In this document: positions 2,077 to 53,946 of the stretch, in pieces
Layout: every line of letters starts with the position of its first letter
How positions within the stretch are numbered: the stretch's first letter is position 1
Source of the DNA: a phage
Length of the DNA: 64,000 nt
Direction: 5' to 3' (one strand)
Sequence record: PZ402305.1
Program-made: the position numbers and the translations under genes
The notes under the pieces: model-generated
Databases searched by the model: none
What the model saw: only the letters and a program-made list of their open reading frames with translations
Told to the model about the DNA's origin: nothing

Positions 2077-2079
2077 TTG

Positions 2080-2108
2080 TTGACAAAAGTCACTTTAAAG
2101 TGTATTAT
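2080..2108 (+). promoter_or_regulatory. Sigma70-like promoter (TTGACA-N17-TATTAT) upstream of portal gene
   Basis: Consensus -35 hexamer at 2080-2085, 17-nt spacer, -10 at 2103-2108, in the 101-nt gap after the terminase stop. Confidence 0.5.
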
Positions 2109-2177
2109 AACTAGATAGGTGAGGTTGTATATAATACAGCCTTGCCTTAACGATTTTATACCTGACTGGAGGAACAA

Positions 2178-3836: not shown

Positions 3837-4316
3837 ATGGAACTCAATAAAGATACACTGTGGGAACTCTTCAAAACCTTCGCTGGTTTTAAAGAGAATT
3901 CTGAATCCCAACAAGATTCTATACCATCTCAAAAACCTGAAACTCTAGTCAAACAAAATAAATTTGATGAAGAAAAGATGCAGGTTATTGAGGTCTTGTA
4001 TTGTCCACCTGAAGAAGACGATCTCCACGGAGAGCGCATGTCTGATTTGGAAATCAGGAAGATGGTTGACAACTTCAATGAGAATATTACCAACATTAGT
4101 GGTAATCTTGGTCACATGAAGAACACCGATAAGTTTTCTCCAATTAAAGCTTGGGTAAATGAAGTCGATTGTTACATTGGTGACGAACTCGTTGTGGAAG
4201 GAACTCCCCTCGTTAAAATCCAATTCAACGACCCTGAATTATATCAAGCTCGTAAAGACGGCGTTCTTAAAGGTTTGAGTATAGGCGCAATGGGCGTTAA
4301 AGTCAAGAAGGACTAA
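3837..4316 (+). CDS. Hypothetical head-morphogenesis protein
   Basis: 159-aa ORF with AGAGG RBS between portal and scaffold-like gene. Confidence 0.6.
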   Translation: MELNKDTLWELFKTFAGFKENSESQQDSIPSQKPETLVKQNKFDEEKMQVIEVLYCPPEEDDLHGERMSDLEIRKMVDNFNENITNISGNLGHMKNTDKFSPIKAWVNEVDCYIGDELVVEGTPLVKIQFNDPELYQARKDGVLKGLSIGAMGVKVKKD

Positions 4317-35437: not shown

Positions 35438-38113
35438 ATGTTTCCAATTCCAATATTTACTATTATGACCAGCACTGGTGTTGTTCCTCTGCCAGCAGGT
35501 ATTGTTAAAAAAGTAATCACTTTAGATTACCCAGATAATGCTGGTAATTCTAACAGCAGTTTAGCAATTTTGCTTAATGATGGTAGATTGTTTACTCAAG
35601 GCGCAAACCTTTTTGGTGAGATTGCAGATGGAACTCGTAGTGCACGATTCAATAATTTCCATTTAGCTTCTACTGTAGTAGCGGATGTGTTTACCGCAGA
35701 TCGTTGTTTTGTTATTAAAACTAACAGTGGGGGATGGCAATATTCAGGATTGACAGCAGGGTTGGTAGGATCTATAGCAGCAGGTGGTACGGACGCATGT
35801 GTAACTACTTGGACCAGCTTTCCATCTGTAATAACAGGGACTATCTCTTTAGCTAATCTTAAAGAGGTTAAGGGAGGATATAACAACACTCTCTGGTTAA
35901 TGAATAGTGGTGTTCTTTATGGATCAGGTCAAAACACAGTAGGCAGTTTAGGTGCAAGTACTACTAACGAAGTTTCTACTCCTCGTCAGATAACAAGTGC
36001 AGCAGTTGCTTTTGATGCAGGTTACAACCAATGCTCTTATGTCAACAATGTGGGAACCTTGCGTGTTTGTGGAGCTAGTAAAGGTTTAGCAGGTAATAAT
36101 AACACAACAACAGCTTTTGTCAATGCTAAGATATCCGCTACTGAAACAGTGTATGTCAAAGATTACATCAATACAGTTTCCCAGACAATAGTTGTAGGAG
36201 ATACCTCCGGTGGCACGGGTACAGTAAACTACTTATATGTTAGGTCTAATACAGAAACAACCTACACTAAACTGGATACCTTTGCAGCAGGTTTCTCAAC
36301 ATGGAAGTTTCCACCAAGCCGCCACTCTTTTTTCGTTGGGATCAATAATTCCTTGTGGGCTATTGGTAAGAACTACACTGCAAACTTAGGTTTGGGGTAT
36401 GATTCTGCGAGCGGAGATCCACTCCAAGTGGGAAAACCAGTTAAACCTGAAGGAGTGGGTTCTTGGGATATAAACAAGCTCACAAGCGTTCATACGCTGA
36501 ATATGGATGTTACTAACCAATTAGGTTATCAAGGAACCTTTTTCGTTTATAATGGAGATATGTATTATTCCGGTATTTGGAAAGATGGGAAAGCCTCGTA
36601 TCTGTTCAATAGCGGTCTAAACTATAATAAATTCACACCAATAGCAAGCTCCGTGATTACGGGTGATATTCTGGCAACTGGCTTAACTACAGATTCTTTA
36701 GGAATTTGTATTGTAGGTGGAACTAAACAGTTGACACATTCTGTTAGCCCAGAAGGAGGTAAACTTTTCAATATTAAATACACTTCTTCTGCCCCTGCAA
36801 ACATGACAATATCATCTACTGGTTTAATGACTTTCCATGCAGAAGGTGGTTTTGATGCAGGTATGACAGCCTTAAACGCCGAAGGAACAACTTTATCAGA
36901 TACCTCTGGAGGATATGCTTCAACATTGAGTGTTTACACCCCTAGCTTATCTGCGATGGATGTAGGAACAACACAAACAATGGTAGCAGAAATAACGCCA
37001 ACAGGAGCAGCAAGCTTACCTGGTATGGTTGTTGAGTATTTCTCTAATGACCCTACGGTAGCAACAGTTGACCCTGTTACAGGCGTTATTACAGCGGTTG
37101 CTGATGGAGGTTGTCGTATCGGTTGTAGAGCAACTTATCAAGGTGTGGTAACTGCCGAAGATAGTTCTTATCTCACAGTGAATGCTGTGGTGATTGTGAT
37201 GGATTATGATTTGACGCAAGAAACTATTCCGGCGGATGTAAAGGTCAACAGGAGTAACCGTTATGCCAGGGCTTCTGGAGATATCCTTGTACCTACAGAG
37301 AGTTCTGCTCCCGTAGCACCTTTAGAATATGTTGGTACAACTCCACAAGGTAGACGTGTTGTAGCAGCCAACCGTACACATATCTTTATCAACAATAACT
37401 TGACAACAGCTTCCCCGTGGTTGAAGACGAACTTGACAGTCACAGCATCAACAATCAACTCTCCGGTTGGAACTACGGCTAACACTTACAAGTTAACACC
37501 TTCTACAACTTCAGGACAACATATTTTATCAGCAGTGAATACAGCTTCTGATATTACAGCAGGTAAGCACTGGGCGGCATCCGTATTCTTGAAGCCAGAT
37601 GGGATCACTAAAGTGAAACTCAAATTGACTTCAGGAGATGAGATTAACGAAGGGACTTATGATCTTGTAGCTGGAACATTTACAGGTGCAGATGCAAACA
37701 TAATCGATATGGGGAATGGTTGGTATCGTGTAATTCTACACAAAGTGACAGTTGCCAAACAAGCATCTATAACCTATGAGATTATAGCTTTGAATGCAAG
37801 TGGATCAGACACTTTCGCAGGAGATGGTACGGCAGGTCTTATTGCTTGGGTTCCACAGCTTGAGATGGGTGATATGACAAATCCAGTTTGGGCGGGGACA
37901 CCATTTGTTTGTTCTTATGCACGAGACACTACCAGTGCTGTTACCTTCACTATTCCTAAGAATGGACATACTGGCGTGGACATTTACCACACTGATGGTA
38001 CTGTGCAACGAGAGGTCTTCACTGGTACAGCTACAACTTGGATGTTGACGTTCACCGCCGCAAGTGCGGATTGGGGATCGAAGTTCATTACAGGTTTGAA
38101 ATATTACGACTAA
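35438..38113 (+). CDS. Tail fiber / receptor-binding protein (putative)
   Basis: 891-aa Thr/Gly/Ser/Ala-rich ORF, last gene of plus-strand arm. Confidence 0.45.
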   Translation: MFPIPIFTIMTSTGVVPLPAGIVKKVITLDYPDNAGNSNSSLAILLNDGRLFTQGANLFGEIADGTRSARFNNFHLASTVVADVFTADRCFVIKTNSGGWQYSGLTAGLVGSIAAGGTDACVTTWTSFPSVITGTISLANLKEVKGGYNNTLWLMNSGVLYGSGQNTVGSLGASTTNEVSTPRQITSAAVAFDAGYNQCSYVNNVGTLRVCGASKGLAGNNNTTTAFVNAKISATETVYVKDYINTVSQTIVVGDTSGGTGTVNYLYVRSNTETTYTKLDTFAAGFSTWKFPPSRHSFFVGINNSLWAIGKNYTANLGLGYDSASGDPLQVGKPVKPEGVGSWDINKLTSVHTLNMDVTNQLGYQGTFFVYNGDMYYSGIWKDGKASYLFNSGLNYNKFTPIASSVITGDILATGLTTDSLGICIVGGTKQLTHSVSPEGGKLFNIKYTSSAPANMTISSTGLMTFHAEGGFDAGMTALNAEGTTLSDTSGGYASTLSVYTPSLSAMDVGTTQTMVAEITPTGAASLPGMVVEYFSNDPTVATVDPVTGVITAVADGGCRIGCRATYQGVVTAEDSSYLTVNAVVIVMDYDLTQETIPADVKVNRSNRYARASGDILVPTESSAPVAPLEYVGTTPQGRRVVAANRTHIFINNNLTTASPWLKTNLTVTASTINSPVGTTANTYKLTPSTTSGQHILSAVNTASDITAGKHWAASVFLKPDGITKVKLKLTSGDEINEGTYDLVAGTFTGADANIIDMGNGWYRVILHKVTVAKQASITYEIIALNASGSDTFAGDGTAGLIAWVPQLEMGDMTNPVWAGTPFVCSYARDTTSAVTFTIPKNGHTGVDIYHTDGTVQREVFTGTATTWMLTFTAASADWGSKFITGLKYYD

Positions 38114-40797: not shown

Positions 40798-43339
40798 TAA
40801 GATTGTAAAATTCTCCAGCCTTAGTAACAGCTAAGGCAGCAAGTTCACCTGCCCGACTATAGGCTGTAAACCATCCACCTTTGGGAGATTCATGAATGTT
40901 AGCCCAAATTTGTCCCGTCTCTTTTTCCTTATTATGCTTCCATTCTTCAACTTTAGCAAGGCATTCTTTATCAATTTTCTTTTGTTCTTCAGGATCGTCT
41001 ACTTTCTTCCAACCTAATGATTCAGGTGAAAACCATTTAAATTCTACAAGGTTACGAGAAACTTCAAGCTGGGCTTCATCGTGATATGCAATCATTTGTT
41101 GCACGAAGTCTTTATTCTTCCAGTCATCTTTAAAGAAGTCAACACTTAGTCCTTCTTCTTCGATCATGTCGTCATAAATAACCATTGCACGTTTAGCACA
41201 GATAACCCCACCACTTTGGAACAGAGAGTTAAGAATCGCGTGAGCAGAACGAGTAGGAACCTTACGACCGTCAATACCCAAAACATATTGTTTACCAGTC
41301 TTAACCCAGAAATCGTTTAAACGTTCTTTAAGACGCGCCAATGGGAATGCAGCTTCCCAGAAAGCATCAAACACTAATTGACCTGTAAACTTATCGCTAC
41401 CAATTGTTTTAGCAACCTTGTCGGCTTGTGCACCATAGGTAATACCATACTTAACAGCTTTAGCAGGACTACGTTCAAATTTACGTCCAATAGTTTCAGT
41501 GATACGTTTTGCCATCATTGTGTGAACATCGTTAGGTTTCTCTAACAACAGAGCGTTACAATATTCGTGTGGCTCCGGCTCGTACCGCCAACAGTAGTGT
41601 GATTCAATTTTTGCTTCCAAAGAGTCGAAGTCGTAGCCGATCTGGAAGTATTTAGGAACCTCTACACCAAACAAGTTACGCATCTCCCATCCAAACAAAG
41701 ATGTGACACGAGGAATATTAGCTACAGATCTATGCTTCATACGAGAGGTTGCAGCATCACATGTAGCGGCTGGGGTAGGAATACGCCCATCCGCCCTTAC
41801 TGCGGCTAAGAAACCTTTATCGTATTCTTGATCTTCTTCATCTTCTTCCCAATCAGCACCGCCACCTAAAATAGAGTTCCTACGATGCTTATACGTTAAG
41901 TATTCTACAATCTGTGTAGCATAAGGAAACTTCTCACCCAAAGCTTGCAGGTTAGGACAAATTTCTTTTTCCTGACCTTTGGTAAAACATGGGTTAGTCA
42001 ATACTTTAAGACCGCGACCTTTACCTTTTGCTATACGCTCTTGAATCTTCCTTTCCAGGGTTTCCGGTGTGCACTCCAGATGATCACAACGATCCTGACA
42101 AAAATTAGAAGATAGAGTTTGCTCAACGTAAGCTCGAATACCTTTCTGAAGTTCTTCCTCGCTCTTTTTAATCTTGGTGCCAGATTTAAGAGTCAAGTCT
42201 TTATCTTTATATTCAGACGGTACCCAACCTAATCCTACAAGCCAGTTTTTAATATGGGTTGTATCGTTCAATGTTGCAGGAATGTTAGGATCACATAGAG
42301 GTTCATCTGCTGCAACTGGCAGTTTCCACTCTTTCCCCAACATAACTAACCACCAATCGCCATCCCTCTCTTCCAAATGACCATCATGTTTCTTAGCAAA
42401 ATTGATCATATGGTTAGTTGGCTCTAAGTTCTTTTTAATTTGCAACTTAGGTGGAATAAAAGCCTTAAGATAACCTTTTGTTGCTGGTTTAGGTGGCAAA
42501 ATAGGCTCAACGAGTAAACGAAGACGCTCCATTTCTGCATCCAAAAAAGCAAGGTTCTCTTCTGCTTGTTTCATGTTAAAAGCAAACCCACGGTGCTCCT
42601 GGCGTGTAATAATGTCTGCTACACGTTGTTCAAGTTCAAATGGACCTTCCCATTTATCATAATCACCCCATTCTTCCATAAGGTAATTATATACGCTCGT
42701 ATTGGCTTTGTTGTCATAGATACAGTAATAAAGCATATCAGCAGCAAAAGTCTTAAATCGATCTTCTTCTGGAATCTCTTTACGGAAATCTATTTTTACA
42801 TCACCACCTGCCTTTCGAGAAAGTGCTGCCAAACTATGTCCTGATTTGCCCTCAATCTTTCGATCTGGGTTTAACACTTTACTCAAAATCAAGGAGTCAA
42901 TAAGTTTTACCTTATTTTTGCCCCACGTATTATATTTAACACTGTAATCTAATCCATAAAACAGTTTTGTAGCCAACCAGTCGTAGTTGATACCGTTGTG
43001 AGCCACAGCCATTTCAACCAGATATTCAGGCTTGTCTTTAAAATAACCTTCATGATTAATAAAATCTGGGAAATCTTTTAGTTGAAAATGTGTGTAATCT
43101 TGCGCCACATACTCTTTAAGAACATATGTGTATTTACCATCTGACTCTTCATAAGGACGCCCATCAAAGATGTATTTAGGGCCATCGTGGAAAGCTACTA
43201 TTTCTCCTGTTTCATGGTTCTCTAAGACAATACAGTGCATTTGAAATGTGTCTTTGAGACGATAAGGACTAGCTAAATAATCAATAGTGTCATTATTCAA
43301 CAATCCGTTTGCTTCAATATCCCATGTAAACTTACTCAC
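40742..43339 (-). CDS. DNA polymerase, family A (T7-like, with 3'-5' exonuclease domain)
   Basis: 865-aa ORF; exo motif DIEANGL near N-terminus; polymerase motif A (GYDFDSLEAKIE), motif B (RSPAKAVKYGITYG) and motif C (YHDEAQLE). Confidence 0.85.
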   Translation of the reverse strand: MSKFTWDIEANGLLNNDTIDYLASPYRLKDTFQMHCIVLENHETGEIVAFHDGPKYIFDGRPYEESDGKYTYVLKEYVAQDYTHFQLKDFPDFINHEGYFKDKPEYLVEMAVAHNGINYDWLATKLFYGLDYSVKYNTWGKNKVKLIDSLILSKVLNPDRKIEGKSGHSLAALSRKAGGDVKIDFRKEIPEEDRFKTFAADMLYYCIYDNKANTSVYNYLMEEWGDYDKWEGPFELEQRVADIITRQEHRGFAFNMKQAEENLAFLDAEMERLRLLVEPILPPKPATKGYLKAFIPPKLQIKKNLEPTNHMINFAKKHDGHLEERDGDWWLVMLGKEWKLPVAADEPLCDPNIPATLNDTTHIKNWLVGLGWVPSEYKDKDLTLKSGTKIKKSEEELQKGIRAYVEQTLSSNFCQDRCDHLECTPETLERKIQERIAKGKGRGLKVLTNPCFTKGQEKEICPNLQALGEKFPYATQIVEYLTYKHRRNSILGGGADWEEDEEDQEYDKGFLAAVRADGRIPTPAATCDAATSRMKHRSVANIPRVTSLFGWEMRNLFGVEVPKYFQIGYDFDSLEAKIESHYCWRYEPEPHEYCNALLLEKPNDVHTMMAKRITETIGRKFERSPAKAVKYGITYGAQADKVAKTIGSDKFTGQLVFDAFWEAAFPLARLKERLNDFWVKTGKQYVLGIDGRKVPTRSAHAILNSLFQSGGVICAKRAMVIYDDMIEEEGLSVDFFKDDWKNKDFVQQMIAYHDEAQLEVSRNLVEFKWFSPESLGWKKVDDPEEQKKIDKECLAKVEEWKHNKEKETGQIWANIHESPKGGWFTAYSRAGELAALAVTKAGEFYNLNVQLTAGYDVGNSWASCH

Positions 43340-44133
43340 TATTCCTCCTTTCTAATGTTCTCCAGAACCCACTGAAGTTCTTTTAAACTTAAACTTCTTA
43401 CTCCCGCAGTTTTACTAGCTTCAGCTTTAAGTAACGGGTAAGCCTCAATGATACGTGTTTTAAGATCAGAAGTCAAGGCTTTTAAAAAGTAGGTAGAGGC
43501 TTCAGATAAAGAATCCTCTTCTGATAACACTTTACCTGCACTTGCTCCCGCTCTCCTAACGGCTATGTCGTAGTCTTTACTGTTGCCTAATACGAATAGT
43601 CGATTTTCTCCTAAAACAACGGGAGAACGCTTCTCGTTGCGTTTAATCCATATCTGGAATACACAAGGAACATCCCAAGGTTCTCCATGAAGAATAAAAG
43701 ATCCTTTTGGACATTCTTCTTCGTAAAGAAGATGCATGTGGGGATTTAGTTTGTGTGCAAAAAAGATTTTTTGAAATGTGCGAGGCAAGATAAAACAAAT
43801 ACCACCTTCGTTATCCAGCATTTCAGCACAATGGTTAAAGAATTTAATGGCAAGACTAGCATTTTTTCCAAACGGAGGATTACCGACAAAAGCAGTTACA
43901 CTGCCAACAGACTCAACAGATTGAGCTAAAAAATCTGCCTCAATACAATCTTCAAACTTAGGGTCAATATCAAAAGAAGTTATGTTTTTAAAACAAGAAG
44001 AGAAAGCTCCTTCTCCCGCAGATGGTTCTACGTAGTTAGCTTCCTCTCCAAAAATTTCTTTGATCTTATCACATAAGAACCCCGCATAAGCGGGGTTAGT
44101 GTAATATTGATCAAGTGTGTTCAACTTGCTCAA
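43339..44133 (-). CDS. DNA N6-adenine methyltransferase (gamma-class amino-MTase, putative)
   Basis: 264-aa ORF with DQYYTNP (Q-Y/F-F/Y-T-P-like motif X), EPSAGEGAF (AdoMet motif I) and NPPFG (motif IV). Confidence 0.6.
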   Translation of the reverse strand: MSKLNTLDQYYTNPAYAGFLCDKIKEIFGEEANYVEPSAGEGAFSSCFKNITSFDIDPKFEDCIEADFLAQSVESVGSVTAFVGNPPFGKNASLAIKFFNHCAEMLDNEGGICFILPRTFQKIFFAHKLNPHMHLLYEEECPKGSFILHGEPWDVPCVFQIWIKRNEKRSPVVLGENRLFVLGNSKDYDIAVRRAGASAGKVLSEEDSLSEASTYFLKALTSDLKTRIIEAYPLLKAEASKTAGVRSLSLKELQWVLENIRKEE

Positions 44134-44142
44134 TAGTCCTCC

Positions 44143-44574
44143 TTAGTTGTTAGCGAACTCAATAGTGAGGTCAACTTTACCATCGTCAGAAATAACCATG
44201 TTTTTGGTATTTTTAAAGATGATATCTACTTTACCTTCACTTACACGACAGAATGCAACACCATCTGCAACTTTATCGATATAATATTTGTAAGAAAGAA
44301 TACCCACTTTACTACGACCAGCACCTTTTGTGAAAGAAGGGCTTACATCGAAACGGAAACCTTTAGAAGAAACAACACGGTAAGAACGTCCAGTTGGAAG
44401 ATGTTCAATAACAGAGACATTGTTCTCAACAACTTTTACAGCAAACTCTTCAGGATGATCCTCAACAATCATATGTGGGATGGCAAATGCCAACGCTTGT
44501 TTGTGTTTAATAACACCAGCACCCAGAGCACCAGCAGCTTTAACTTTTGCATTCAGATCGATTGTCATACGCAT
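44143..44574 (-). CDS. Hypothetical protein (own promoter)
   Basis: 143-aa ORF with GAGGAG RBS downstream of a predicted sigma70 promoter. Confidence 0.55.
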   Translation of the reverse strand: MRMTIDLNAKVKAAGALGAGVIKHKQALAFAIPHMIVEDHPEEFAVKVVENNVSVIEHLPTGRSYRVVSSKGFRFDVSPSFTKGAGRSKVGILSYKYYIDKVADGVAFCRVSEGKVDIIFKNTKNMVISDDGKVDLTIEFANN

Positions 44575-44607
44575 TTTTACTTCTCCTCTTGTTTGGTTGA
44601 TGAGACA

Positions 44608-44636
44608 AGTATAAGTCCCTTCCGTAAAGTTGTCAA
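44608..44636 (-). promoter_or_regulatory. Sigma70-like promoter (TTGACA-N17-TATACT) on minus strand
   Basis: -35 at 44631-44636 and -10 at 44608-44613 (minus-strand reading), about 27-nt leader with RBS before ATG at 44574. Confidence 0.55.
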
Positions 44637-44640
44637 CAGG

Positions 44641-44668
44641 TATTTTTAATAAAAGGGCCGAAGCCCTT
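44641..44668 (-). terminator. Rho-independent terminator after primase-helicase gene
   Basis: Minus-strand aagggc-uucg-gcccuu stem-loop followed by UUUUAUU; overlaps the stop codon. Confidence 0.6.
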
Positions 44669-46445
44669 AATAGTTGCTATCCGTAGGCAAATTAGCAGGA
44701 TTGTTGAAATACTGCTCTTTGTCATGCAGAGTTGCAGTTCTAATGTCATAGTAAAACTGCCCTGCCGGACCAGTTTCCGAGAACTCACGGTTTTTTAGGA
44801 TAAAGCAATGAGTCGTATTGCGTTCTACAGGGTCTTCAGCGGCTTTATCTCGTTCCAAAGCCAAGGTAATACCAGCACCTTTAGCCAAGAAACTACTACC
44901 CATTGCATCGTCCTCTGTTAAGTGTTCATTGCCACCATTAGCCGACTTCTTAACGTGTGAGATGACGATAATGGTTATAGCATACTCTTTCATGATGCGC
45001 TTCAACCATGTTGCTAACTCTTCCTGGGCTTGAACATCCATACCAGAAAGCAAATCAGAATAAGGGTCGATAACAAGAATTGTTACTCCAAAATAGATGA
45101 TCATCTCCAAAACTTTTTCTTTGATAGACTCCACATCTGCTCCACGATCATCACACACATAAAAACGTGGTGATCCATCTTCTCTTTCGTAAAAATCTAG
45201 GATTTTTTCTTTATTCTCTTCCAAGATTTGAAATTTCTCTTCCGGTGTTTTCCTGTGTAGAGGAATATGCAGGAACGAGGACAACAGGTTACGAGAATAT
45301 TTCTTATAAGTTGCTTCCAAGGACAGAATACCTAGGGTATGTTCTGGGTGTGCAACAATAATATGTTTGGTGATCTCATTCACCATCAAAGTTTTACCGA
45401 TACTGGTCTTTGCCAGGATGACTGTAATCTCTTCCTCTACTAAACCACCACCCAGCATATTTGCAGCAACACGCATAAAAGGAGGCAAGGTAATCATCTT
45501 GGATTCCAAGCATTCTAATGCAGCTTCATACAAGACATTAGAAGCATAAACACCTGCTGGGGTGTATAGACGAGCACTCCAAAAAGCTTTTACGAAATCT
45601 TTTGCACGACCTTCTTCCAGATACTGATTGGCATCCTTAAGATCCATCTGCATACGGTAGACTTTGTTACGAGGCAGCACCTTAACAATATTTTCAAATG
45701 CCTCATTACCTGCTTTGTCATTATCCATGCAAACAATAATCTTCTTAAATTTTTCAAAGAAAGGATATTGTGCCTGAACTTGTTTATACATACTGGTTTC
45801 ACCAGTTGTGCCACTAACTACTGCTGGAAGTTCATATTTGTTGTCCAAGTTTTCAGACAGCATTTGATAAGCTGCCAGAGCATCGTGTTCACCACCTGTA
45901 ATTACCACAGTATGAGAACGGTCTGCAAAACGAATTTGTCCAAAAAGATCTACATCTTTACCTACTTGACCAATAGGTTTGCTGAAATCTTTAGGATGAA
46001 TACGACGCTTAAAACCAACCAACTCTTTACCGATAGTAGTTGGATATAAACAACTTTCTACTACCATCTGATCCCCTTCCTGACGGTATTCATAACGAAC
46101 ACCATAGAAAGATGAAACTTTTTCTTTAATGCCTCGATAACCACGTGGGTTGGTTGATGTTTCTTGAACAATTTTACGATGAATCTGTTTATTAAATTCC
46201 GAACCCACAATCTCCTCCTCTTCTTCTAAAACTTCACCATTTTCTCGTAACCATTCTACGCTAGGAATAGTGTATTCACACGCAAAGCACTTAGCACCCT
46301 TATGCTCTCCATTAGAATCTAATCCATAAACCATCAGGTTATTACGAGAGCGATCCTTGCCATTTTTCATGCAGCGCGGACAACCTGTATGCCCTTCCTT
46401 GCTAAGATCAACATCAAATCCATATTTAGTTATAATGTGCGACAC
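44667..46445 (-). CDS. Bifunctional DNA primase-helicase (T7 gp4-like)
   Basis: 592-aa ORF; N-terminal zinc ribbon (CPRC ... CFAC), TOPRIM-like acidic motifs (GGEHD, CMDNDKAG), C-terminal DnaB-type Walker A (AKTSIGKT) and Walker B (ILVIDP). Confidence 0.85.
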   Translation of the reverse strand: MSHIITKYGFDVDLSKEGHTGCPRCMKNGKDRSRNNLMVYGLDSNGEHKGAKCFACEYTIPSVEWLRENGEVLEEEEEIVGSEFNKQIHRKIVQETSTNPRGYRGIKEKVSSFYGVRYEYRQEGDQMVVESCLYPTTIGKELVGFKRRIHPKDFSKPIGQVGKDVDLFGQIRFADRSHTVVITGGEHDALAAYQMLSENLDNKYELPAVVSGTTGETSMYKQVQAQYPFFEKFKKIIVCMDNDKAGNEAFENIVKVLPRNKVYRMQMDLKDANQYLEEGRAKDFVKAFWSARLYTPAGVYASNVLYEAALECLESKMITLPPFMRVAANMLGGGLVEEEITVILAKTSIGKTLMVNEITKHIIVAHPEHTLGILSLEATYKKYSRNLLSSFLHIPLHRKTPEEKFQILEENKEKILDFYEREDGSPRFYVCDDRGADVESIKEKVLEMIIYFGVTILVIDPYSDLLSGMDVQAQEELATWLKRIMKEYAITIIVISHVKKSANGGNEHLTEDDAMGSSFLAKGAGITLALERDKAAEDPVERNTTHCFILKNREFSETGPAGQFYYDIRTATLHDKEQYFNNPANLPTDSNY

Positions 46446-46457
46446 TTTGTTCTCCTG

Positions 46458-46736
46458 TTAAAATGGTTCGTTAGTCTCCATCATATATTCTGCTTCTAGT
46501 TCTTCCATGTGCTTTCTAAATTGGAAAGCAATTTCTGCTACAGTTACATTTAAATCTTTTTCAAAAACTTCTGTAGAGCCTTCATAAAAACGAATACCGT
46601 CAATTAAAAGCCCTCCGTGGTAATCCCAATCACTTTCACGAGAAAGCGGGTTAGGCTCTTCATAATAGTAATCCACCTCCACGACTAAGGCTTTCCCGTT
46701 ACGAGTGGTGTATTCAAAATCAAAAGTGTTAATCAT
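46458..46736 (-). CDS. Hypothetical protein
   Basis: 92-aa acidic ORF between helicase and glycosyltransferase genes. Confidence 0.5.
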   Translation of the reverse strand: MINTFDFEYTTRNGKALVVEVDYYYEEPNPLSRESDWDYHGGLLIDGIRFYEGSTEVFEKDLNVTVAEIAFQFRKHMEELEAEYMMETNEPF

Positions 46737-47680
46737 TATAGCTCCTCAAATAAAAGTCTACGACGCTCATTCAACACATCAATGTGATAATGAGTCCTGA
46801 CATACTTAGCTAATGCTAATCCTTTCTCCATGCAAACATCGGGAGCACTTAATAAGTATTCCGTAATATCTTTCCACTCGGAAGGTGTTTCAGCAAAGAA
46901 TAACAAATCTTTAAACTCTTGTGTATGATAATTCTCACGAGGAGAACAGATCAAAGGTAAACCCTTAGCACCTGCCTCAAGAATTTTAAGATTGCTTTTT
47001 GCATTATTAAACACGTTATCAAGCAATGGCGCAAGACTGATTTGATGACCATCGTAAGATTCCATGTAGTTGGCATATGGTCTTACACCTTCATAAACAC
47101 AAGTTGGTGCTACATTTTCTCTGATCACAGACCATTCACGACTACTTAAAACTTCAGAATCCCTACGAAAACCACATATTGTAAGATCTTTACCAAAATC
47201 GGGCAAGATAGCCAAATCTTGTTTATGTGTTTCACTTCCAGCCCAGACTAATGGAGTTTTGGAGTAGCGATCACGGGTCAACACAAATTGACCTTCATCG
47301 TAAGGAAGACCATTAGGGATTATGTGCACATTATCATTGTATTGTGAAAGTTCAACTTGCAAAGCAGGTGTCGTAGTTGTAACAAGATCGCTGTGCTCTA
47401 AAAACCATTTTAAATGTTCACGAATACCTGATTCAAAAATACCTTCTAACATGTGTCCTTTTGGAATAACTAAAGAGTCATCCAAATCCATAACCATTTT
47501 AAAGCCTAGGTTTTTAAGGGCTAAAAAGCCCTCTTTACCTTTTGTTGGCACTCCGTTAAAAACGAAAACGTTGTGTTTAGGTTGTGAAGAGAACTGCCTT
47601 GAGTAAGGCAGCACTACCCTATGGAAATCGCAGACACTATAATTGATTCCGTTACGATTGTCAAGAATTATTTGTCCCAT
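46736..47680 (-). CDS. Glycosyltransferase, GT-B-fold-like (paralog 2 of tandem pair)
   Basis: 314-aa ORF; paralogous to 47688..48635 (shared FNNAKSNLKILEAGAKGLP, VRTHY); the KILEAGAKG-P-hh motif resembles GT4-type donor-binding region. Confidence 0.45.
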   Translation of the reverse strand: MGQIILDNRNGINYSVCDFHRVVLPYSRQFSSQPKHNVFVFNGVPTKGKEGFLALKNLGFKMVMDLDDSLVIPKGHMLEGIFESGIREHLKWFLEHSDLVTTTTPALQVELSQYNDNVHIIPNGLPYDEGQFVLTRDRYSKTPLVWAGSETHKQDLAILPDFGKDLTICGFRRDSEVLSSREWSVIRENVAPTCVYEGVRPYANYMESYDGHQISLAPLLDNVFNNAKSNLKILEAGAKGLPLICSPRENYHTQEFKDLLFFAETPSEWKDITEYLLSAPDVCMEKGLALAKYVRTHYHIDVLNERRRLLFEEL

Positions 47681-47687
47681 ACTTCAC

Positions 47688-48635
47688 CTACAAACTTTCA
47701 ATAACCTGGCGTCGCAACTCGTTTGCATCTGCCAGATTATAATGTGTTCGAACATGTTCAGCCAAGAACAAGCCACGATCTTCCCGATAGTTTGGATTGC
47801 GAAGAAGCTTAACAATTTCGTAATGCCATTCTGCTTTATTCTCTGCGTAAGCAACAGCGCGAGCATCTACAGGGTTAAAATAAGGTAATACCTTAGAACA
47901 AACAATTGGAATACCTTTTGCTCCAGCTTCCAGGATTTTGAGATTACTTTTACAATTATTAAAATCATTATCTACCAAAGGAGCTATAGCAATAGCATGA
48001 CTTTCGTAAACACTCATGTAATTATCTAAATCTTTTACAGCGGCTTTATATTTGGCATTTGGTAAATTTCTGCGAATCTTAATCCACTCTTGTCCCGTGA
48101 TGCTTTGTGATGCTTCATATCCCGCAATAGTAAGAAGTTCATCATCGAAAGTATTAGAGACTAGTCGTAAGTCTGGTTCGTGACTAGCACCGCCAGCCCA
48201 TACAACAGGGGTACCGGATGAACGATCATTTGACAAAGTGAATTGTCCGCTATCAAAAGGAAGTGCATTTCGGATCACAACAACATTCCTATTTAAGTGA
48301 CGGATCTTATATGCCAAATATTCCGTAGTCACAATAACCACATCAGCAAGCTTAACCATAGCTACAATAGCATGAGTGTTTGACTCGTATAGACTTGCTA
48401 AATAATGTTCTGGATTAAGTTGGTAAAAATCATCTAAGTCTACAACAACCTTAACACCTTGACGTTTCAAAGATAAAACGTATTCTGCACCTTTAGAGTG
48501 GATACGGTTAAACACAACAACATCTTTCTTAGGTTGAATATTATTGTTGTTAAATGGTATAACAATACGATGATAGTCACAACCGCTGTGAGGTTTTGCA
48601 TCAATTTTTAGTTTAGACCATTTTTTATTTGACAT
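47688..48635 (-). CDS. Glycosyltransferase, GT-B-fold-like (paralog 1 of tandem pair)
   Basis: 315-aa ORF; clear collinear similarity to 46736..47680. Confidence 0.45.
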   Translation of the reverse strand: MSNKKWSKLKIDAKPHSGCDYHRIVIPFNNNNIQPKKDVVVFNRIHSKGAEYVLSLKRQGVKVVVDLDDFYQLNPEHYLASLYESNTHAIVAMVKLADVVIVTTEYLAYKIRHLNRNVVVIRNALPFDSGQFTLSNDRSSGTPVVWAGGASHEPDLRLVSNTFDDELLTIAGYEASQSITGQEWIKIRRNLPNAKYKAAVKDLDNYMSVYESHAIAIAPLVDNDFNNCKSNLKILEAGAKGIPIVCSKVLPYFNPVDARAVAYAENKAEWHYEIVKLLRNPNYREDRGLFLAEHVRTHYNLADANELRRQVIESL

Positions 48636-49308
48636 GTGCTAGTGCCTCCTCATAGGAAATTCGGATTTTCCCATTTTTAATATCCTCTAAAGATGCTTTA
48701 TATTCTTCCCAGTTAATCCCAATAGCAGCCTCTTTCTCTTCTTTTGTCAGGTTAGCAAAAGGCATAGGATTGTTTCCAAAAACATCGTCTGGGTGGATAT
48801 AAGCCATGATACGAAGTGGACAAGGTGTTGCCTGAATACCATGATTCAAACCAGCAGCTTGCAAACGGTGTCCCCATTCAGCATCTTCAAAACCATAACC
48901 GTGAGTGTAAGGACGGAAATAACCCATCTTCTCAACAACGGCACGAGAATACATTGCAAATTGACACATTGCAAGTTCCCAGAGAATAACTTCTCCTTTG
49001 CTTCCAACAACTTTATCTTTGAAATACTCCGGCATACCAAAGAAATCCCATCCTCCAGAGACAGCTTGATCTACAAAGTATGTTTCCCATCCCTCCATGA
49101 CTGGGTAGCAATCATCGTCAAAAATAAACCAATAATCATAACCTTCTTCATAAAACTGGTGCATAAGTTCATTCCTGGCATAAGCTACACCTTTACGATC
49201 TGGATCGTTGAATACTCGAAAATCTGCACGTGGATCTGTTACAAGGTAGTCTTTAAGTGGACGGACACCTACAGTGATAACACCCACTCCGATTTTAATA
49301 TTTTCCAT
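48625..49308 (-). CDS. Glycosyltransferase, GT-A fold (family-2-like)
   Basis: 227-aa ORF with N-terminal GVGVITVGVRP, acidic DxD-type motif YWFIFDDDCYP, and GYGFEDAEWGHRL resembling the GT2 signature. Confidence 0.55.
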   Translation of the reverse strand: MENIKIGVGVITVGVRPLKDYLVTDPRADFRVFNDPDRKGVAYARNELMHQFYEEGYDYWFIFDDDCYPVMEGWETYFVDQAVSGGWDFFGMPEYFKDKVVGSKGEVILWELAMCQFAMYSRAVVEKMGYFRPYTHGYGFEDAEWGHRLQAAGLNHGIQATPCPLRIMAYIHPDDVFGNNPMPFANLTKEEKEAAIGINWEEYKASLEDIKNGKIRISYEEALAHVK

Positions 49309-49316
49309 TTTCTCTC

Positions 49317-49880
49317 CTAAATAGTTTTACTGTGATCATGACAGTGTAATAAATGATGTATAGACCGTTGAGGATTTGTTTGACCTAATCTGTAAATGTG
49401 AAACAGATACATTCCCCGCATCAATCCTAACCTCTTTCCTTTTTCATGTAAAGTGCGAGAGAAAATTAAGTCGAATTGGATAGATTTTTCTTCGAAAGGA
49501 ATTTCATTCCACAATGATTTTCTAAAAAGCAAAAAGAAACCTGCCAGAGGTGTTCCGAAAGGAACTTCTTCAACACTTACTTTATGATATTCTCTTGCAA
49601 TCTTAGCATATTCTATATGGTTTAGAATATCGGGATCATCGTTAATTTGGTTAGAGAAAAGCTGATAACCACTACCTAACCTGTTACAAGTTGCACCTAT
49701 TACATCAAAAGGCGGGTTTGACATAACAAGCTCTTCAAGCATAGAGGGTTGATCAGGTAGGAGGAACATTGTATCGGTATCTCTTAAACACACCCAACTA
49801 TCATCTGGAAGAACGGCAATGGCTTCATTGATAGCCTTGCCGATATTTCCTGTCAGATAGGGAGTAATATAATAAATCAT
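49317..49880 (-). CDS. Glycosyltransferase-like protein (GT-A-like, putative)
   Basis: 187-aa ORF with LRDTDTMF (DxD-like) motif; adjacent to three other glycosyltransferase-like genes. Confidence 0.35.
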   Translation of the reverse strand: MIYYITPYLTGNIGKAINEAIAVLPDDSWVCLRDTDTMFLLPDQPSMLEELVMSNPPFDVIGATCNRLGSGYQLFSNQINDDPDILNHIEYAKIAREYHKVSVEEVPFGTPLAGFFLLFRKSLWNEIPFEEKSIQFDLIFSRTLHEKGKRLGLMRGMYLFHIYRLGQTNPQRSIHHLLHCHDHSKTI

Positions 49881-49896
49881 TCTCCCCTCCGTTATA

Positions 49897-50088
49897 TTAA
49901 CTGTCAGCTACAATCCCACGTTTAATCATTTCTTGTTGGATCTGAATCACACGATCTCGTGCTTCCATATATTCTTTAAAAGATTCTTGGAGATGGTCAC
50001 GGGCTACGTCCCGTAGTTTAATCAGTTTGTCGTTTGTCACTTCTTGAAGACAGATCTCGCCAGTTTCATTGGTCCCAAGCGTTTTCAT
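49897..50088 (-). CDS. Hypothetical small protein
   Basis: 63-aa ORF. Confidence 0.4.
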   Translation of the reverse strand: MKTLGTNETGEICLQEVTNDKLIKLRDVARDHLQESFKEYMEARDRVIQIQQEMIKRGIVADS

Positions 50089-50344
50089 TTACAACCTCCT
50101 TAATAGCTACTGCACAGTTCTTACAAATACATTGACCTTTGTTCTTAGAAATTTCAATGTAAGGTTCATTTTCGTTTTCTCCGCGTCGTGAGTCATATAT
50201 TACTGTATTGAAGCAGACAACGCAAATGTTTTTAATAACGACATATTTTTGCACTTTCTGTTTAGTGCGAAAATTGACTTCAATGACTTCTCCCATCAAT
50301 GAATCTCCCCTAAAATGTTGTTTTGAGACATTACTGCGGAGCAT
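50066..50344 (-). CDS. Small Cys-rich (zinc-finger-like) protein
   Basis: 92-aa ORF with CVVC ... CICKNC. Confidence 0.45.
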   Translation of the reverse strand: MLRSNVSKQHFRGDSLMGEVIEVNFRTKQKVQKYVVIKNICVVCFNTVIYDSRRGENENEPYIEISKNKGQCICKNCAVAIKEVVNENAWDQ

Positions 50345-50580
50345 TCTACAGCATCATGAGTCCTTGCAAAACGCTCCCACAACACAGCATCTACTTTAAG
50401 AACCATACAAGGATAAATACTGTCGTTGATCATGTCAATGCTATATTTATCTACATCCTTTTCATCTTCCATAAACAAAGTAGCGTATGCTTCTAAATGC
50501 TTACGGGTGTAGTATACATCCTCTTCAGTAAGACCGACAACCAGGTAACTTGCTACAACAACAGTATTATCTTCTTGCAT
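50296..50580 (-). CDS. Hypothetical protein (start revised to ATG 50580)
   Basis: Internal ATG preceded by GGGGAG RBS lies just after the hydrolase stop; the track start 50643 would overlap the hydrolase by 62 nt. Confidence 0.5.
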   Translation of the reverse strand: MQEDNTVVVASYLVVGLTEEDVYYTRKHLEAYATLFMEDEKDVDKYSIDMINDSIYPCMVLKVDAVLWERFARTHDAVECSAVMSQNNILGEIH

Positions 50581-50581
50581 T

Positions 50582-51103
50582 TTAACTCCCCTTTGGTAGA
50601 TAGAAACCATGCACTTTATCTCGATAAACAAGACGCATATCACGTTCCCAGTGTGTCCTTATATTCCGTTTCTTGAAGTATAGAGCACCTTTAGTAACAT
50701 CTAAAACAGACCGCAATTCAGGAAAATGTTTCTCTAAATAAAGTAAACGCTCCGCTATTGCTTTTGCTTCCTGCCACTTATCTTTCTCTGTTACGTTAAA
50801 AGTTTTCGCATATGAGAATTGCCCTTTCTGGAACAAGACTTCTCTGACTGTGTTAGGGAAGTAGGTATCATTTCTTCTGTTGATTACCACATTCCCAACG
50901 GCATTCATTCCTTTTTTACCCAGACCGCGACCTTCTGCGTAAATTGCACAAGCTAATAGAATTTTATCATTATATTGCTTTGTACATTTGTGAACTACTT
51001 TAGCGGTTTTTACGTTTGCAGCTTCGGCTTTCGCCACAACAGGTGTAAATGTAAAAGCAGTTAAGGATAGTAACGCAACTGTTACAAAGTTTTTTATCAG
51101 CAA
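50582..51103 (-). CDS. Secreted cell-wall hydrolase (SleB/Hydrolase_2-like), candidate endolysin
   Basis: 173-aa ORF; N-terminal signal peptide (MLIKNFVTVALLSLTAFTFTPVVAKA); CAIYAEGRG motif resembling SleB-type hydrolases; TTG start with AAGGAGG RBS and own promoter. Confidence 0.5.
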   Translation of the reverse strand: MLIKNFVTVALLSLTAFTFTPVVAKAEAANVKTAKVVHKCTKQYNDKILLACAIYAEGRGLGKKGMNAVGNVVINRRNDTYFPNTVREVLFQKGQFSYAKTFNVTEKDKWQEAKAIAERLLYLEKHFPELRSVLDVTKGALYFKKRNIRTHWERDMRLVYRDKVHGFYLPKGS

Positions 51104-51135
51104 ATTTTGCCTCCTTTTTAAGTTAACGAATTTCT

Positions 51136-51164
51136 AGTATAACACGATAGAGGCTTTATTGCAA
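51136..51164 (-). promoter_or_regulatory. Sigma70-like promoter (TTGCAA-N17-TATACT, TG-extended) for the hydrolase gene
   Basis: -35 at 51159-51164 and -10 at 51136-51141 on minus strand; about 25-nt leader with RBS. Confidence 0.55.
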
Positions 51165-51184
51165 GAGGGGGATTTCTCCCCCTC
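51165..51184 (-). terminator. Terminator-like hairpin after TerD gene
   Basis: Minus-strand gaggggg-agaaau-cccccuc stem-loop 20 nt after the TerD stop; U-tract weak. Confidence 0.4.
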
Positions 51185-51202
51185 AAAATCATTTGTTAAT
51201 TA

Positions 51203-51805
51203 TTATGGACATTCATACCATTCTTTTTTACCACCGAAGGCCATCACCACATCACAAATATCCAGACCAGCTTTGCCTACACCATATGCTTTCAGCTTCC
51301 ATTCCCCATCTTCACGAACCAAGGAAGCCACGTGGCAGATTGTGTTGCCAGCTACTTCAGGAGCCAGGAAGTCAAAATCCAGAATTTCCACATTGCGCTC
51401 GGAGTCGAAGATTTTAAGCATACCTTCAGAAGCATGACCAAAACGTTTCAGACCTGTATCATCATCAATGGTCAGAACAAAGGCAATCTCTTGTGCATCA
51501 GGAGAGATTTTAGCCAGAGTAATATCAATCTGCTCCATGCTGCCAGTTCCATCACGAACATCGTCACCAGCGAAGGTAGAACGTTCAGGATCAAACTTGT
51601 TAGCATAGCAAACCAGATGACGTGCAGACAGCATTTCAGGATTGCCAGCGGCATTGTGACGACAAACCAGTGCACTTACATCCAGATCCAGTTTAGAATC
51701 AGATTTCCAAGAGAATTCCAGGCGCAGTTCTTTCAGAGCCGGAGCAACCTTCTTCAGGGAAATTTTTTCGCTAGAGCCTTTTTTCAGGGAAATTTTATCA
51801 GTCAT
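51203..51805 (-). CDS. terD: TerD-family protein (tellurite-resistance/stress response TerD domain)
   Basis: 200-aa ORF; collinear with TerD proteins: N-terminal ISLKK repeats, LDLDVSALV, FVLTIDDD and C-terminal GEWKLKAYGVGKAGL. Confidence 0.8.
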   Translation of the reverse strand: MTDKISLKKGSSEKISLKKVAPALKELRLEFSWKSDSKLDLDVSALVCRHNAAGNPEMLSARHLVCYANKFDPERSTFAGDDVRDGTGSMEQIDITLAKISPDAQEIAFVLTIDDDTGLKRFGHASEGMLKIFDSERNVEILDFDFLAPEVAGNTICHVASLVREDGEWKLKAYGVGKAGLDICDVVMAFGGKKEWYECP

Positions 51806-51820
51806 CTTTTGTCTCCTCTA

Positions 51821-52090
51821 TTATTTAAGTGTAATACCAGTTACAGTCAATTCTACTTCCAAAAGCTTAGATGTGTTTTGGATTGATACTAATTGTGCAT
51901 GATGGTTTAGTTCTACAGCAGAATAATCATTTTCCCCATCATCTACTTTTAAATAAACAATAATTTCACTAAGGTCTAAACCATTTTCGTCAAATGCATT
52001 TTCATAGACGAAAGTATCTCCTACATCCAAATCTTTAATAGTAAGGCATCGTTTATTTACTTTTTGCTCATCAATTTCGAAGTTTAACAC
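51821..52090 (-). CDS. Small protein, paralog B of a duplicated ~90-aa family
   Basis: 89-aa ORF, GTG start with AGGAGG RBS; shares DLDVGxTF ... GLD ... TxTGITLK with 53112..53390. Confidence 0.55.
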   Translation of the reverse strand: MLNFEIDEQKVNKRCLTIKDLDVGDTFVYENAFDENGLDLSEIIVYLKVDDGENDYSAVELNHHAQLVSIQNTSKLLEVELTVTGITLK

Positions 52091-52319
52091 TTCTTCCTCC
52101 TAATGTTATCTCCGGTTTGTATATACGAAGAATTATAGCATTTTCATTTTCTTTGTCAACCCATTCTTCATAATCAGGCCATACATGAATCTCTACTCTA
52201 CTTACAATATCTTCCATTCGCACAGTCCCAATGAAATACTCTTTGAGACTGCGCATAATGAAAGCTTCTCTCTCACGCCAATAATTTTCTATGACTTGAG
52301 AGGCAAGCTCGTCGATCAT
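52071..52319 (-). CDS. Hypothetical small protein
   Basis: 82-aa ORF; start overlaps vWA stop (ATGA). Confidence 0.45.
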   Translation of the reverse strand: MIDELASQVIENYWREREAFIMRSLKEYFIGTVRMEDIVSRVEIHVWPDYEEWVDKENENAIILRIYKPEITLGGRSVKLRN

Positions 52320-53110
52320 TTTTTAGCACCTACTTTAACAACCCACTCTCCGAACTCTTCAGATAAGAGTTTGTCATAAAGCTCTGAATCTGTCAAGTCT
52401 AAATCTTTAATGCCAATAAAACCAACATTATCATAAGCATTTGCCAGTTCTTTCAGGAAGCCAAACTTCTCATTACCAACGCCAACCATGAACCAATAAA
52501 TAGGTTTATTCTTATTCTCTTCGATAAGACGACGAACAGCACTAGGATCACCATTCTCACCATCAGTCTGGAAGAATACAACACCAGGGGTAACGTCAGA
52601 ACCTGGTTCAGATACAGCTACAACTTTTTCACGCTCTACAGACACTGTTTCAGTTTTACCAAGCAGACGATTAAAGAAGCCTTTCTTTGGAGCCTCCTCT
52701 TGTACCACTTGTTTAGTGGTAATATATTTAGTAACAGTGCCAAAATACTCATCGTAGATATCCGCCATTACAGGGGCGTAATTTGTTCCACCTCCGATAC
52801 GAACATTACGCATACATTTACCAACATAGTCATCGTAAACATCTGCTGTTGCTGGAGTAAGCTCTTGGGAACTCGTATTGAAGGCCCACATATCAATTTG
52901 TTGATTATCGTCGAACAGCATACCAAAAGGAAGCAGTTTACCTACAAAATCACTCACTACCCCACTAGAATATAGACCATGCATACTACCAGAAATATCT
53001 AGAGCACATGCTACACGAAGAACAATCTTACCTTCATTCAGGTTCTTATTCTTTTTCAGAGAGAAAGCAAGGTTTTCTTGACGTTTTTTCAGGCTGATTT
53101 TCTCGGACAT
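52316..53110 (-). CDS. vWA-domain protein (TerY/TerF-like) with TerD-like N-terminal ISLKK motif
   Basis: 264-aa ORF; MIDAS motif DISGSM at start of a vWA-like domain; N-terminus MSEKISLKK mirrors the TerD N-terminus; AAGGAG RBS. Confidence 0.65.
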   Translation of the reverse strand: MSEKISLKKRQENLAFSLKKNKNLNEGKIVLRVACALDISGSMHGLYSSGVVSDFVGKLLPFGMLFDDNQQIDMWAFNTSSQELTPATADVYDDYVGKCMRNVRIGGGTNYAPVMADIYDEYFGTVTKYITTKQVVQEEAPKKGFFNRLLGKTETVSVEREKVVAVSEPGSDVTPGVVFFQTDGENGDPSAVRRLIEENKNKPIYWFMVGVGNEKFGFLKELANAYDNVGFIGIKDLDLTDSELYDKLLSEEFGEWVVKVGAKK

Positions 53111-53111
53111 A

Positions 53112-53390
53112 TTATTTCTCCTTCTTAAGTGTAATATTGGTAACTTCTAAATCTACTTCCACCATATTTGTATCTGGTGGGATGCAATGAGTATAGCCTC
53201 GTTGTGCTAGTGATCCATTAATACAGATCGCACTGTTTGTGGAATTTTTAATGAACACCAAGTTACGGTAGGTATCCAACCCTGCGTCTTCATAGGCATC
53301 ATAATACATGAATGTGGCCCCTACGTCAAGATCTTCGAAAGCAATAGGTAAATCCTGACTTTTTTCTTCTTGAATATTGAATCTAAACAC
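53112..53390 (-). CDS. Small protein, paralog A of duplicated family (start revised to internal GTG)
   Basis: Internal GTG at 53390 has a GAGGAGG RBS and aligns with the start of paralog B; track start 53456 lacks an RBS. Confidence 0.5.
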   Translation of the reverse strand: MFRFNIQEEKSQDLPIAFEDLDVGATFMYYDAYEDAGLDTYRNLVFIKNSTNSAICINGSLAQRGYTHCIPPDTNMVEVDLEVTNITLKKEK

Positions 53391-53946
53391 GCATACCTCC
53401 TCTACCAATTTTGAAGCCCAAATCGTAAGCTTCCTTAGTGATCTTTTGTAACTCACTTATAGGAAGTGTTACAAGAGGATCATCTTCTTCAATTTCCATC
53501 TTGTCATCTTCTGTTTCAATGAGAGTATTATGCACTTTGTGATAAGGGTTGTCAACACGTTTAAACTTATTCTTTTCTGTGCTGAAAAAACAATCTGGAT
53601 CTTCTTCACCATCACCCCAACCTTGGTTAGGATCTCCGTCAGATTGTTCTGTAGGGATTTCACCTGTAAAGTACTCTTCCAGCACCATAGCGATACCGTC
53701 CCTTGGATTTGAGGAATGCATCAAATCACAAACCTTACTCCAATCCATAGCCCATTCGAACCGTTCACGAACGCCGTTTTCATCCTCCTTTCCAGAGAAA
53801 ACACAACCATAACTATCATAGTTGCCATACATCTCTTCAATAACAACACCGTCCTTCAAAAGAAAGAGATAACAAGGCGATCCGTCGAAAGAAGTAGAAA
53901 GGGCAGCTTTGCCCGATTCTTTGCACAAAAAGCTAAAACAACCCAT
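53383..53946 (-). CDS. Hypothetical acidic protein
   Basis: 187-aa ORF within the Ter-like block; start overlaps upstream stop. Confidence 0.5.
   Translation of the reverse strand: MGCFSFLCKESGKAALSTSFDGSPCYLFLLKDGVVIEEMYGNYDSYGCVFSGKEDENGVRERFEWAMDWSKVCDLMHSSNPRDGIAMVLEEYFTGEIPTEQSDGDPNQGWGDGEEDPDCFFSTEKNKFKRVDNPYHKVHNTLIETEDDKMEIEEDDPLVTLPISELQKITKEAYDLGFKIGRGGMRV

Follow-up and report, generated by a model that had tools for sequence, protein, structure and literature searches.

The 64,000-nucleotide (nt) phage sequence analyzed here (PZ402305.1; the whole of this stretch is called the window) contains four consecutive glycosyltransferase genes, GT1 to GT4, on the minus strand at 46736-49880. 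We propose, with a probability of about one half, that the four genes form a cassette whose products would act in the cytoplasm to glycosylate virion proteins of the phage itself, the acceptor being specified only as a class of protein. This reading draws on the soluble, cytoplasmic character of the enzymes, a phage-encoded rhamnose pathway, the late and structural gene context of related cassettes, a link to the mycobacteriophage protein Wee gp104, and a clade of homologs linked to bacterial adhesins. The cluster and its enzyme assignments are confirmed, and the genes were already annotated: RefSeq names all four 'glycosyltransferase'. Literature searches found no direct experiments on these four genes; the two older suggestions for their role, DNA rhamnosylation and alteration of surface glycans, stand in the literature as proposals only. 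The open reading frames (ORFs) of the locus are as follows.

49317..49880, minus strand: GT4, 187 residues, small GT-A-fold glycosyltransferase, transcribed first in the cluster.
48625..49308, minus strand: GT3, 227 residues, GT-A-type glycosyltransferase, constant partner of the GT-B enzyme.
47688..48635, minus strand: GT2, 315 residues, GT-B-fold enzyme that resembles the GT4 family, core enzyme of the cassette.
46736..47680, minus strand: GT1, 314 residues, paralog of GT2.
46458..46736, minus strand: conserved ORF of 92 residues, function unassigned (phrog_4240, E 6e-33), listed for context only.
44667-46445: primase/helicase with Toprim and DnaB_C domains.
50582-51103: SleB-type hydrolase (endolysin), upstream of the cluster in the direction of transcription.

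An earlier note, made from the sequence alone, had described four consecutive sugar-transferase genes here. The ORFs are real, with the boundaries it gave and all on the minus strand, and the motifs it quoted, including KILEAGAKG(I/L)P, DDD, and DTD, are present. Its assignment of two GT-B paralogs and two GT-A enzymes, one with DDD and a smaller one with DxD, agrees with sequence and PHROG matches, the latter being very strong and falling exclusively in glycosyltransferase-annotated families. The tandem duplication that it saw in the GT-B pair is borne out by 41% identity between GT1 and GT2 (BLASTP E 2e-77), and the placement that it described, in a virulent phage and adjoining replication and lysis genes, is as stated. 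GT4 and GT3 are separated by 8 nt and GT2 and GT1 by 7 nt, GT3 and GT2 overlap by 11 nt, and the stop of GT1 overlaps the start of the 92-residue ORF by 1 base. The primase/helicase gene follows, and the cluster shares one co-oriented gene run with the replication genes. Three small ORFs, the SleB-type hydrolase gene, and genes for TerD and vWA-TerF proteins lie upstream of the cluster in the direction of transcription.

The region is 99.6% identical to that of Escherichia phage tuntematon and 98.8% identical to that of phAPEC8, both members of the genus Phapecoctavirus in the Stephanstirmvirinae. Every database record with the primase/helicase at ≥95% identity (65/65) also has the cluster at ≥95%, which places the cluster among the core features of the genus. 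The phi92-like Justusliebigvirus, which includes the BASEL phage PaulScherrer (Bas60), has all four genes in unchanged order and location, with 66-77% protein identity. These cross-genus orthologs resemble each other more than GT1 resembles GT2; the duplication is therefore old. Among the loci compared, the GT1 paralog is confined to large-myovirus lineages. A Justusliebigvirus-like metagenomic contig (L067, 6755-8945) carries GT4, GT3, and a single GT-B gene, followed by the primase/helicase; either one copy was lost, the gene is a recombinant of both paralogs, or the preduplication state was retained.

GT1 matches phrog_7162 at E 3e-145, and it retains all invariant residues of the GT-B family (its row of alignment A3). 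Pfam alone is a weak guide: GT1 is barely at the cut-off (25.1 bits against Glyco_trans_1_2, PF13524; cut-off 25), and GT2, GT3, and GT4 are sub-threshold, GT2 with 20.4 and 22.8 bits against Glycos_transf_1-type families. Many GT-B homologs have precomputed PF13524 or PF13692 matches. NCBIfam has no family for the proteins, and single-sequence and profile searches of PDB sequences with GT2, GT3, and GT4 returned nothing usable. In a predicted model, the two Rossmann-like domains of the GT-B protein superpose on solved GT-B enzymes. Among the nearest structural neighbors are WlaC (8dqd), PimA, WaaG, and WaaB, and also BshA and LmbT, while known phage DNA glycosyltransferases appear only at structural ranks 24 to 43, a generic likeness. 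Retaining enzymes of the GT4 family (a family name, distinct from the gene GT4) usually carry an E-x7-E motif. In the phage GT-B family, E236 is invariant, and the residue 8 positions upstream is the nearly invariant Cys228, which replaces the first Glu; alignment A3 thus contains no intact E-x7-E motif. The phage protein is also shorter, at 315 residues, than the retaining GT4-family enzymes (sucrose-phosphate synthase, BshA, PimA, WlaC, TarM, GtfA), with which it shares only 9-15% identity.

GT3 matches phrog_2456 at E 1.2e-78 and has the invariant residues D64-D65-D66 and Y138-G139-x-E141-D142 (alignment A1). Its Pfam matches (TAGT, Glyco_transf_7C, and Glycos_transf_2) are sub-threshold, a GT3 profile found nothing significant in the PDB, and its GT-A type is predicted from sequence. 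GT4 has a single Rossmann-like nucleotide-binding fold with a conserved acidic DxD, the invariant D34-x-D36. Direct and profile-profile comparison revealed no relationship between GT3 and GT4, and the GT4 model therefore cannot inform the fold of GT3. Hydropathy and signal checks detected no transmembrane segment or signal peptide in any of the four proteins. Their 19-residue Kyte-Doolittle maxima range from 0.76 to 1.65, and the 1.65 peak, in GT2, corresponds to a helix and a strand in the high-confidence part of a globular model. The four products are thus predicted to be soluble proteins of the nucleotide-sugar glycosyltransferase type, two of them GT-B and two GT-A-type.

We then compared the gene context of homologs in other phages and prophages. 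A GT-B homolog lies beside or near GT3 in 22 of the 27 IMG/VR loci found via GT3, frequently with a 4-nt overlap. Homologs labeled 'bacterial' proved to lie in prophages. Several lineages have GT4 together with GT3 and the GT-B gene, and three have a nucleotide-sugar epimerase with them; beyond GT3, the GT-B gene, and GT4, and apart from this epimerase, no gene cluster was common to more than one phage lineage. Representative arrangements are the following.

Pseudomonas prophages: cassette between holin/endolysin and terminase.
Enterobacter and Serratia prophages: endolysin, GT4, epimerase, GT3, GT-B, HNH, TerS, TerL, capsid.
A further lineage: tail-repeat protein, GT-B, GT3, HNH, TerL, Mu-type portal.
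Paraburkholderia prophage: capsid, portal, and collagen-like protein, then the cassette, then gp10-like (head-tail connector), tail-completion, and tail-tube proteins.
Further loci: cassette near a DUF3383-domain protein and a phage tail-lysozyme-domain protein.
Chitinophaga: cassette directly upstream of an SPP1-type portal.
Cellulophaga phage phi17:1: GT4-like domain between head-morphogenesis and prohead-protease genes, beside a methyltransferase.
Streptomyces phage Zuko: epimerase, GT-B, one gene (annotated Rnase E), large terminase subunit.

The cases embedded within head-tail modules are the informative ones. The conserved unit that moves between unrelated phages is the pair of GT3 and the GT-B enzyme, with GT4 and the epimerase as frequent accessories.

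A second connection leads to the mycobacteriophages. Tblastn with GT3 matched 356 Mycobacterium phage records, the listed E values ranging from ∼1e-5 to 3e-8. The N-terminal domain of Wee gp104 (Cluster F) belongs with GT3 (phrog_2456, E 1.7e-63; GT3 profile, E 4.5e-23), and the gp104 gene lies in a right-end cassette immediately before an HNH gene, a slot that in the related phage Che8 is occupied by gp108-110. Two papers citing Freeman 2023 report that Che8 uses transferases of its own to glycosylate its capsid and tail tube, gp110 being essential (PMC12363180, PMC11256854). The likeness to the mycobacteriophage cassettes lies in the grouping of soluble phage glycosyltransferases, here next to packaging genes, in the sharing of the GT3 family with Wee gp104 at the equivalent slot, and in the methyltransferase or sugar-modifying partners of some versions. 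Freeman et al. in 2023 are said to have included Corndog gp38 and Myrna among the virion glycosylation cassettes, with Corndog gp38, like Che8 gp110, reported as a required glycosyltransferase. Unlike Che8, the present system has a core GT-B enzyme and a GT4 with no Che8 counterpart, Gram-negative hosts, and its own dTDP-rhamnose pathway, and it is known from genes alone.

That pathway lies outside the window. Tuntematon (NC_052660, 121282-124560) encodes a complete deoxythymidine diphosphate (dTDP)-L-rhamnose pathway, rmlB-rmlA-rmlC-rmlD, ∼70 kb from the cluster. The rmlBACD genes (also at 283-3561 of locus L009) sit in a nucleotide-metabolism region and adjoin glutaredoxin and ribonucleotide reductase genes. 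RmlA is present across both Stephanstirmvirinae genera, and its occurrence in this subfamily was remarked upon by Olsen et al. (PMC7552041). Phage-made dTDP-L-rhamnose is a probable donor for at least one glycosylation step.

A hint as to the type of acceptor comes from the Burkholderiaceae. Burkholderia dolosa, Trinickia symbiotica, and Trinickia sp. LjRoot230 carry a chromosomal GT-B homolog with 41-45% identity to GT2, in the conserved order intimin/invasin-type gene (IAT_beta, Big_1, Invasin_D3), unassigned protein of 555-571 residues, GT-B homolog. The invasin genes of these islands are only 52-56% identical, and the synteny is still kept; this retention despite invasin divergence hints at protein acceptors for the GT-B family. 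The islands (L010, 3025-10724; L011, 3742-12190; and L050) additionally contain uncharacterized proteins of 474 and 245 residues on the opposite strand.

Within the window, one tail fibre is a possible glycan acceptor, a weak lead. This protein (33372-35396, plus strand) combines a Tail_spike_N domain with four Gly-X-Y runs of the collagen type, 6 to 11 triplets long, one of which reads GTNGTNGTDGTNG. It is conserved over its full length in Stephanstirmvirinae, while rV5-like phages match its last ∼100 residues only. A collagen-repeat protein also immediately precedes the cassette in the Paraburkholderia prophage, and another occurs in the neck module of Cellulophaga phi17:1. An exclusive link between collagen repeats and the cassette was rejected, since collagen-like fibres are widespread in phages absent from the GT-B matches in the phage database. 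Two further tail proteins combine domains in a way unusual among this phage's fibres: one at 21164-23317 (plus strand) with Calx-beta, noncontractile-tail-sheath N-terminal, and TIM-barrel domains, and one at 35438-38113 (plus strand) with RCC1-like repeats and a Big_2 Ig-like domain.

If the cassette acts on virion proteins, a short oligosaccharide would be placed on structural proteins in the cytoplasm, either ahead of assembly or while it proceeds. The four enzymes would act sequentially, the duplicated GT-B pair presumably adding two similar linkages, and dTDP-L-rhamnose from the phage rmlBACD genes would feed at least one of the steps. A comparable case is chlorovirus PBCV-1, in which virus-encoded cytoplasmic GT-A enzymes including rhamnosyltransferases (A064R and its partners) assemble an oligosaccharide on the major capsid protein without the host secretory machinery. 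PBCV-1 infects eukaryotic algae and its enzymes differ, and the comparison is at the level of the generic GT-A fold.

Several observations weigh against a virion-protein target. In Stephanstirmvirinae and at least four other lineages (L027, L054, L056, L057), the neighbors of the cassette are primase, polymerase, or ribonucleotide-reductase genes, not structural ones, and the slot just upstream of the terminase, where the cassette is found in other phages, commonly collects unrelated cargo genes. The related loci were compared on crude gene calls, and the lineage counts were made by eye. Che8 gp108, gp109, and gp110 showed no significant similarity to GT1-4 by BLASTP or profile comparison; the link to that system is therefore one of cassette position and one shared domain family, not of orthology. 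Finally, the capsid, tube, and sheath proteins of the window have no obvious Ser/Thr-rich terminal tail.

An alternative is that the enzymes modify some other cytoplasmic acceptor, whether a host or nonstructural phage protein, RNA, a small molecule, or a free oligosaccharide, in the service of host takeover or antidefense. The location of the cluster in a run of replication genes, adjoining the TerD and vWA-TerF stress-type genes, would suit such a role; the Burkholderia/Trinickia clade suggests that a nonvirion protein can be the acceptor, and the small-molecule GT-B enzymes BshA and LmbT are among the structural neighbors. However, a takeover function leaves unexplained why unrelated phages repeatedly have the cassette embedded among capsid, portal, connector, and tail genes, and only the GT3, GT-B, and GT4 cluster, plus the epimerase in three lineages, recurs across more than one phage lineage. 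We regard this alternative as unlikely.

Remodeling of the host envelope is likewise improbable. Under this explanation, the enzymes would change or divert precursors of the lipopolysaccharide (LPS) core, the enterobacterial common antigen (ECA), or the O-antigen at the inner membrane face; the resulting masking of receptors would block superinfection or prevent loss of progeny on cell debris. The solved folds nearest to the GT-B enzyme do include enzymes with lipid-linked or LPS acceptors (the Campylobacter undecaprenyl-diphosphate-linked GalNAc transferase WlaC, PimA, WaaG, and WaaB). Infection by the phi92-like phages Bas60-62 needs ECA and core glucose, implying a glycan receptor (PMC8594841), and a surface-glycan role was suggested in the ZCKP1 paper (PMC6141743). 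Alteration of surface glycans by prophage glycosyltransferases is well known, but those systems (GtrABC, TarP) use membrane proteins or are expressed from the lysogen, and their substrates are O-antigen or teichoic acid, whereas the present cassette, phage-borne as they are, is soluble and found in late/structural operons. The cluster contains none of the Gtr-type membrane parts (GtrA flippase, GtrB, serotype-specific transferase) and no polymerase, and its four proteins lack membrane spans. In temperate phages, moreover, the cassettes are co-oriented and tightly packed within late/structural operons rather than forming a lysogeny-expressed unit, and the BASEL authors considered the remodeling of a glycan-covered surface within a short lytic cycle to be futile (PMC11990801).

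The weakest alternative, that the enzymes put rhamnose or other sugars on hydroxylated phage DNA bases and thereby block restriction, is very improbable in a phage whose relatives lack the annotated precursor enzymes and are restriction-sensitive. It has its origin in the suggestion by Olsen et al. in 2020 that hydroxymethylated nucleotides are rhamnosylated (PMC7552041). All known glycosylated phage bases start from 5-hydroxymethylcytosine (5hmC), 5-hydroxymethyluracil (5hmU), or 5-hydroxycytosine (5hoC), each produced by a ThyA homolog, or from TET-oxidized 5-methylcytosine (5mC) (PMC13326640). The earlier note had seen no base-hydroxymethylating enzyme in the window and left the rest of the genome to be searched; the annotation of the near-identical tuntematon lists the FAD-dependent ThyX as the only thymidylate synthase and contains no ThyA-type hydroxymethylase or hydroxylase. 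No TET/JBP protein is annotated in tuntematon either, and there was no Tet_JBP match among the neighbors of its Dcm-like methyltransferase or among other methyltransferase-annotated genes. The phi92-like phages with the orthologous cluster, a sister genus rather than the present phage, are 'exceptionally susceptible' to restriction-modification systems (PMC8594841), and Stephanstirmvirinae including Bas61 and Bas62 are targeted by defenses thought to sense unmodified DNA (PMC13463889). The match of GT3 to TAGT (PF20691) scores 19.5 bits, under the cut-off of 27.5, and aligns only residues 32-68 with 38 of the 205 profile positions. The small prophages that carry the cassette have no base-modifying genes in the stretches examined; specifically, neither the repressor-to-tail stretch of the Pseudomonas silvicola prophage nor the repressor-to-terminase stretch of the Enterobacter prophage encodes a hydroxypyrimidine-forming enzyme, which leaves virion proteins as the obvious late-stage substrate in these prophages.

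Two known forms of DNA glycosylation were considered as candidates and rejected: a TET-associated glycosyltransferase system (PF20691 with TET/JBP and a C5-methyltransferase), on both the TAGT score and the lack of an annotated TET, and T-even-type base glycosylation, on the lack of an annotated ThyA homolog and on the restriction sensitivity reported for relatives. The T-even enzymes (T4 alpha-GT and beta-GT, the T2/T6 beta-glucosyl-HMC alpha-glucosyltransferase, and the HY126/RB69 arabinosyltransferases) and the TET-associated glycosyltransferases are of the same GT-B/GT-A kind as the enzymes described here, and like them belong to virulent myoviruses and lie near DNA-metabolism genes. They differ in that the present phage is without an annotated ThyA homolog or TET and its relatives are restriction-sensitive. 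A rare, site-specific DNA modification may still be conceivable; the published guess of DNA rhamnosylation can be set aside on existing phenotype data. Of the two targets that the earlier note offered, then, modification of DNA bases is disfavored, and virion proteins, which have gained support from context and homology, are the target that we infer.

Two other genes of the window touch on DNA methylation. Between the DNA polymerase and primase/helicase genes, an ORF of 264 residues with a TTG start and an NPPF motif (FVGNPPFG) occupies 43339-44133 on the minus strand; it is annotated as a DNA N6-adenine methyltransferase in relatives and has no Pfam match at E ≤ 0.01. Between the portal and scaffold-like genes, 3837-4316 (plus strand) corresponds to RefSeq tuntematon gp161, named 'DNA methyltransferase'. 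A match to Peptidase_S78_2 (E 1.4e-11) relates its product to the XkdF-type prohead serine proteases, and the RefSeq label is probably wrong.

Just upstream of the endolysin gene, the TerD-domain and vWA-TerF-like genes occupy 51203-51805 and 52316-53110 on the minus strand. Relatives of this phage have more genes annotated for 'tellurite resistance', TelA and TerC, close by. A promoter and terminator scan of 42000-53500 was uninformative beyond one sigma-70 promoter of perfect consensus at 52159-52132 (minus strand; TTGACA, a 16-nt spacer, and a TG-extended TATAAT). Its position is within, or at the end of, a small ORF and upstream of the co-oriented run of TerD, endolysin, glycosyltransferase, and replication genes.

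Were virion proteins the target, the cassette would stand as the Gram-negative equivalent of virion glycosylation in mycobacteriophages, with another enzyme at its core. More tentatively, a mobile GT-A and GT-B cassette distributed among phages of Proteobacteria, Bacteroidota, and Actinobacteria might serve to coat the virions of Gram-negative tailed phages, including therapeutically used E. coli Phapecoctavirus and phi92-like phages, with glycans, which in Stephanstirmvirinae would contain rhamnose from phage-made dTDP-rhamnose and might be carried on the collagen-like fibre. Such a cassette would constitute the first coliphage virion glycosylation system, with a core enzyme unrelated to the mycobacteriophage one. 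The question is directly testable, as Bas60-62 grow on E. coli K-12 and have the same four genes. The GT-B and intimin/invasin-type loci of the Burkholderiaceae may in turn indicate an undescribed bacterial enzyme for the glycosylation of proteins such as adhesins. Phapecoctavirus and phi92-like phages have a broad host range and are candidates for therapy. The glycan coat of mycobacteriophage virions is reported to lower antibody binding and neutralization, and a similar coat on coliphages would bear on pharmacokinetics, immunogenicity, and the choice of production host.

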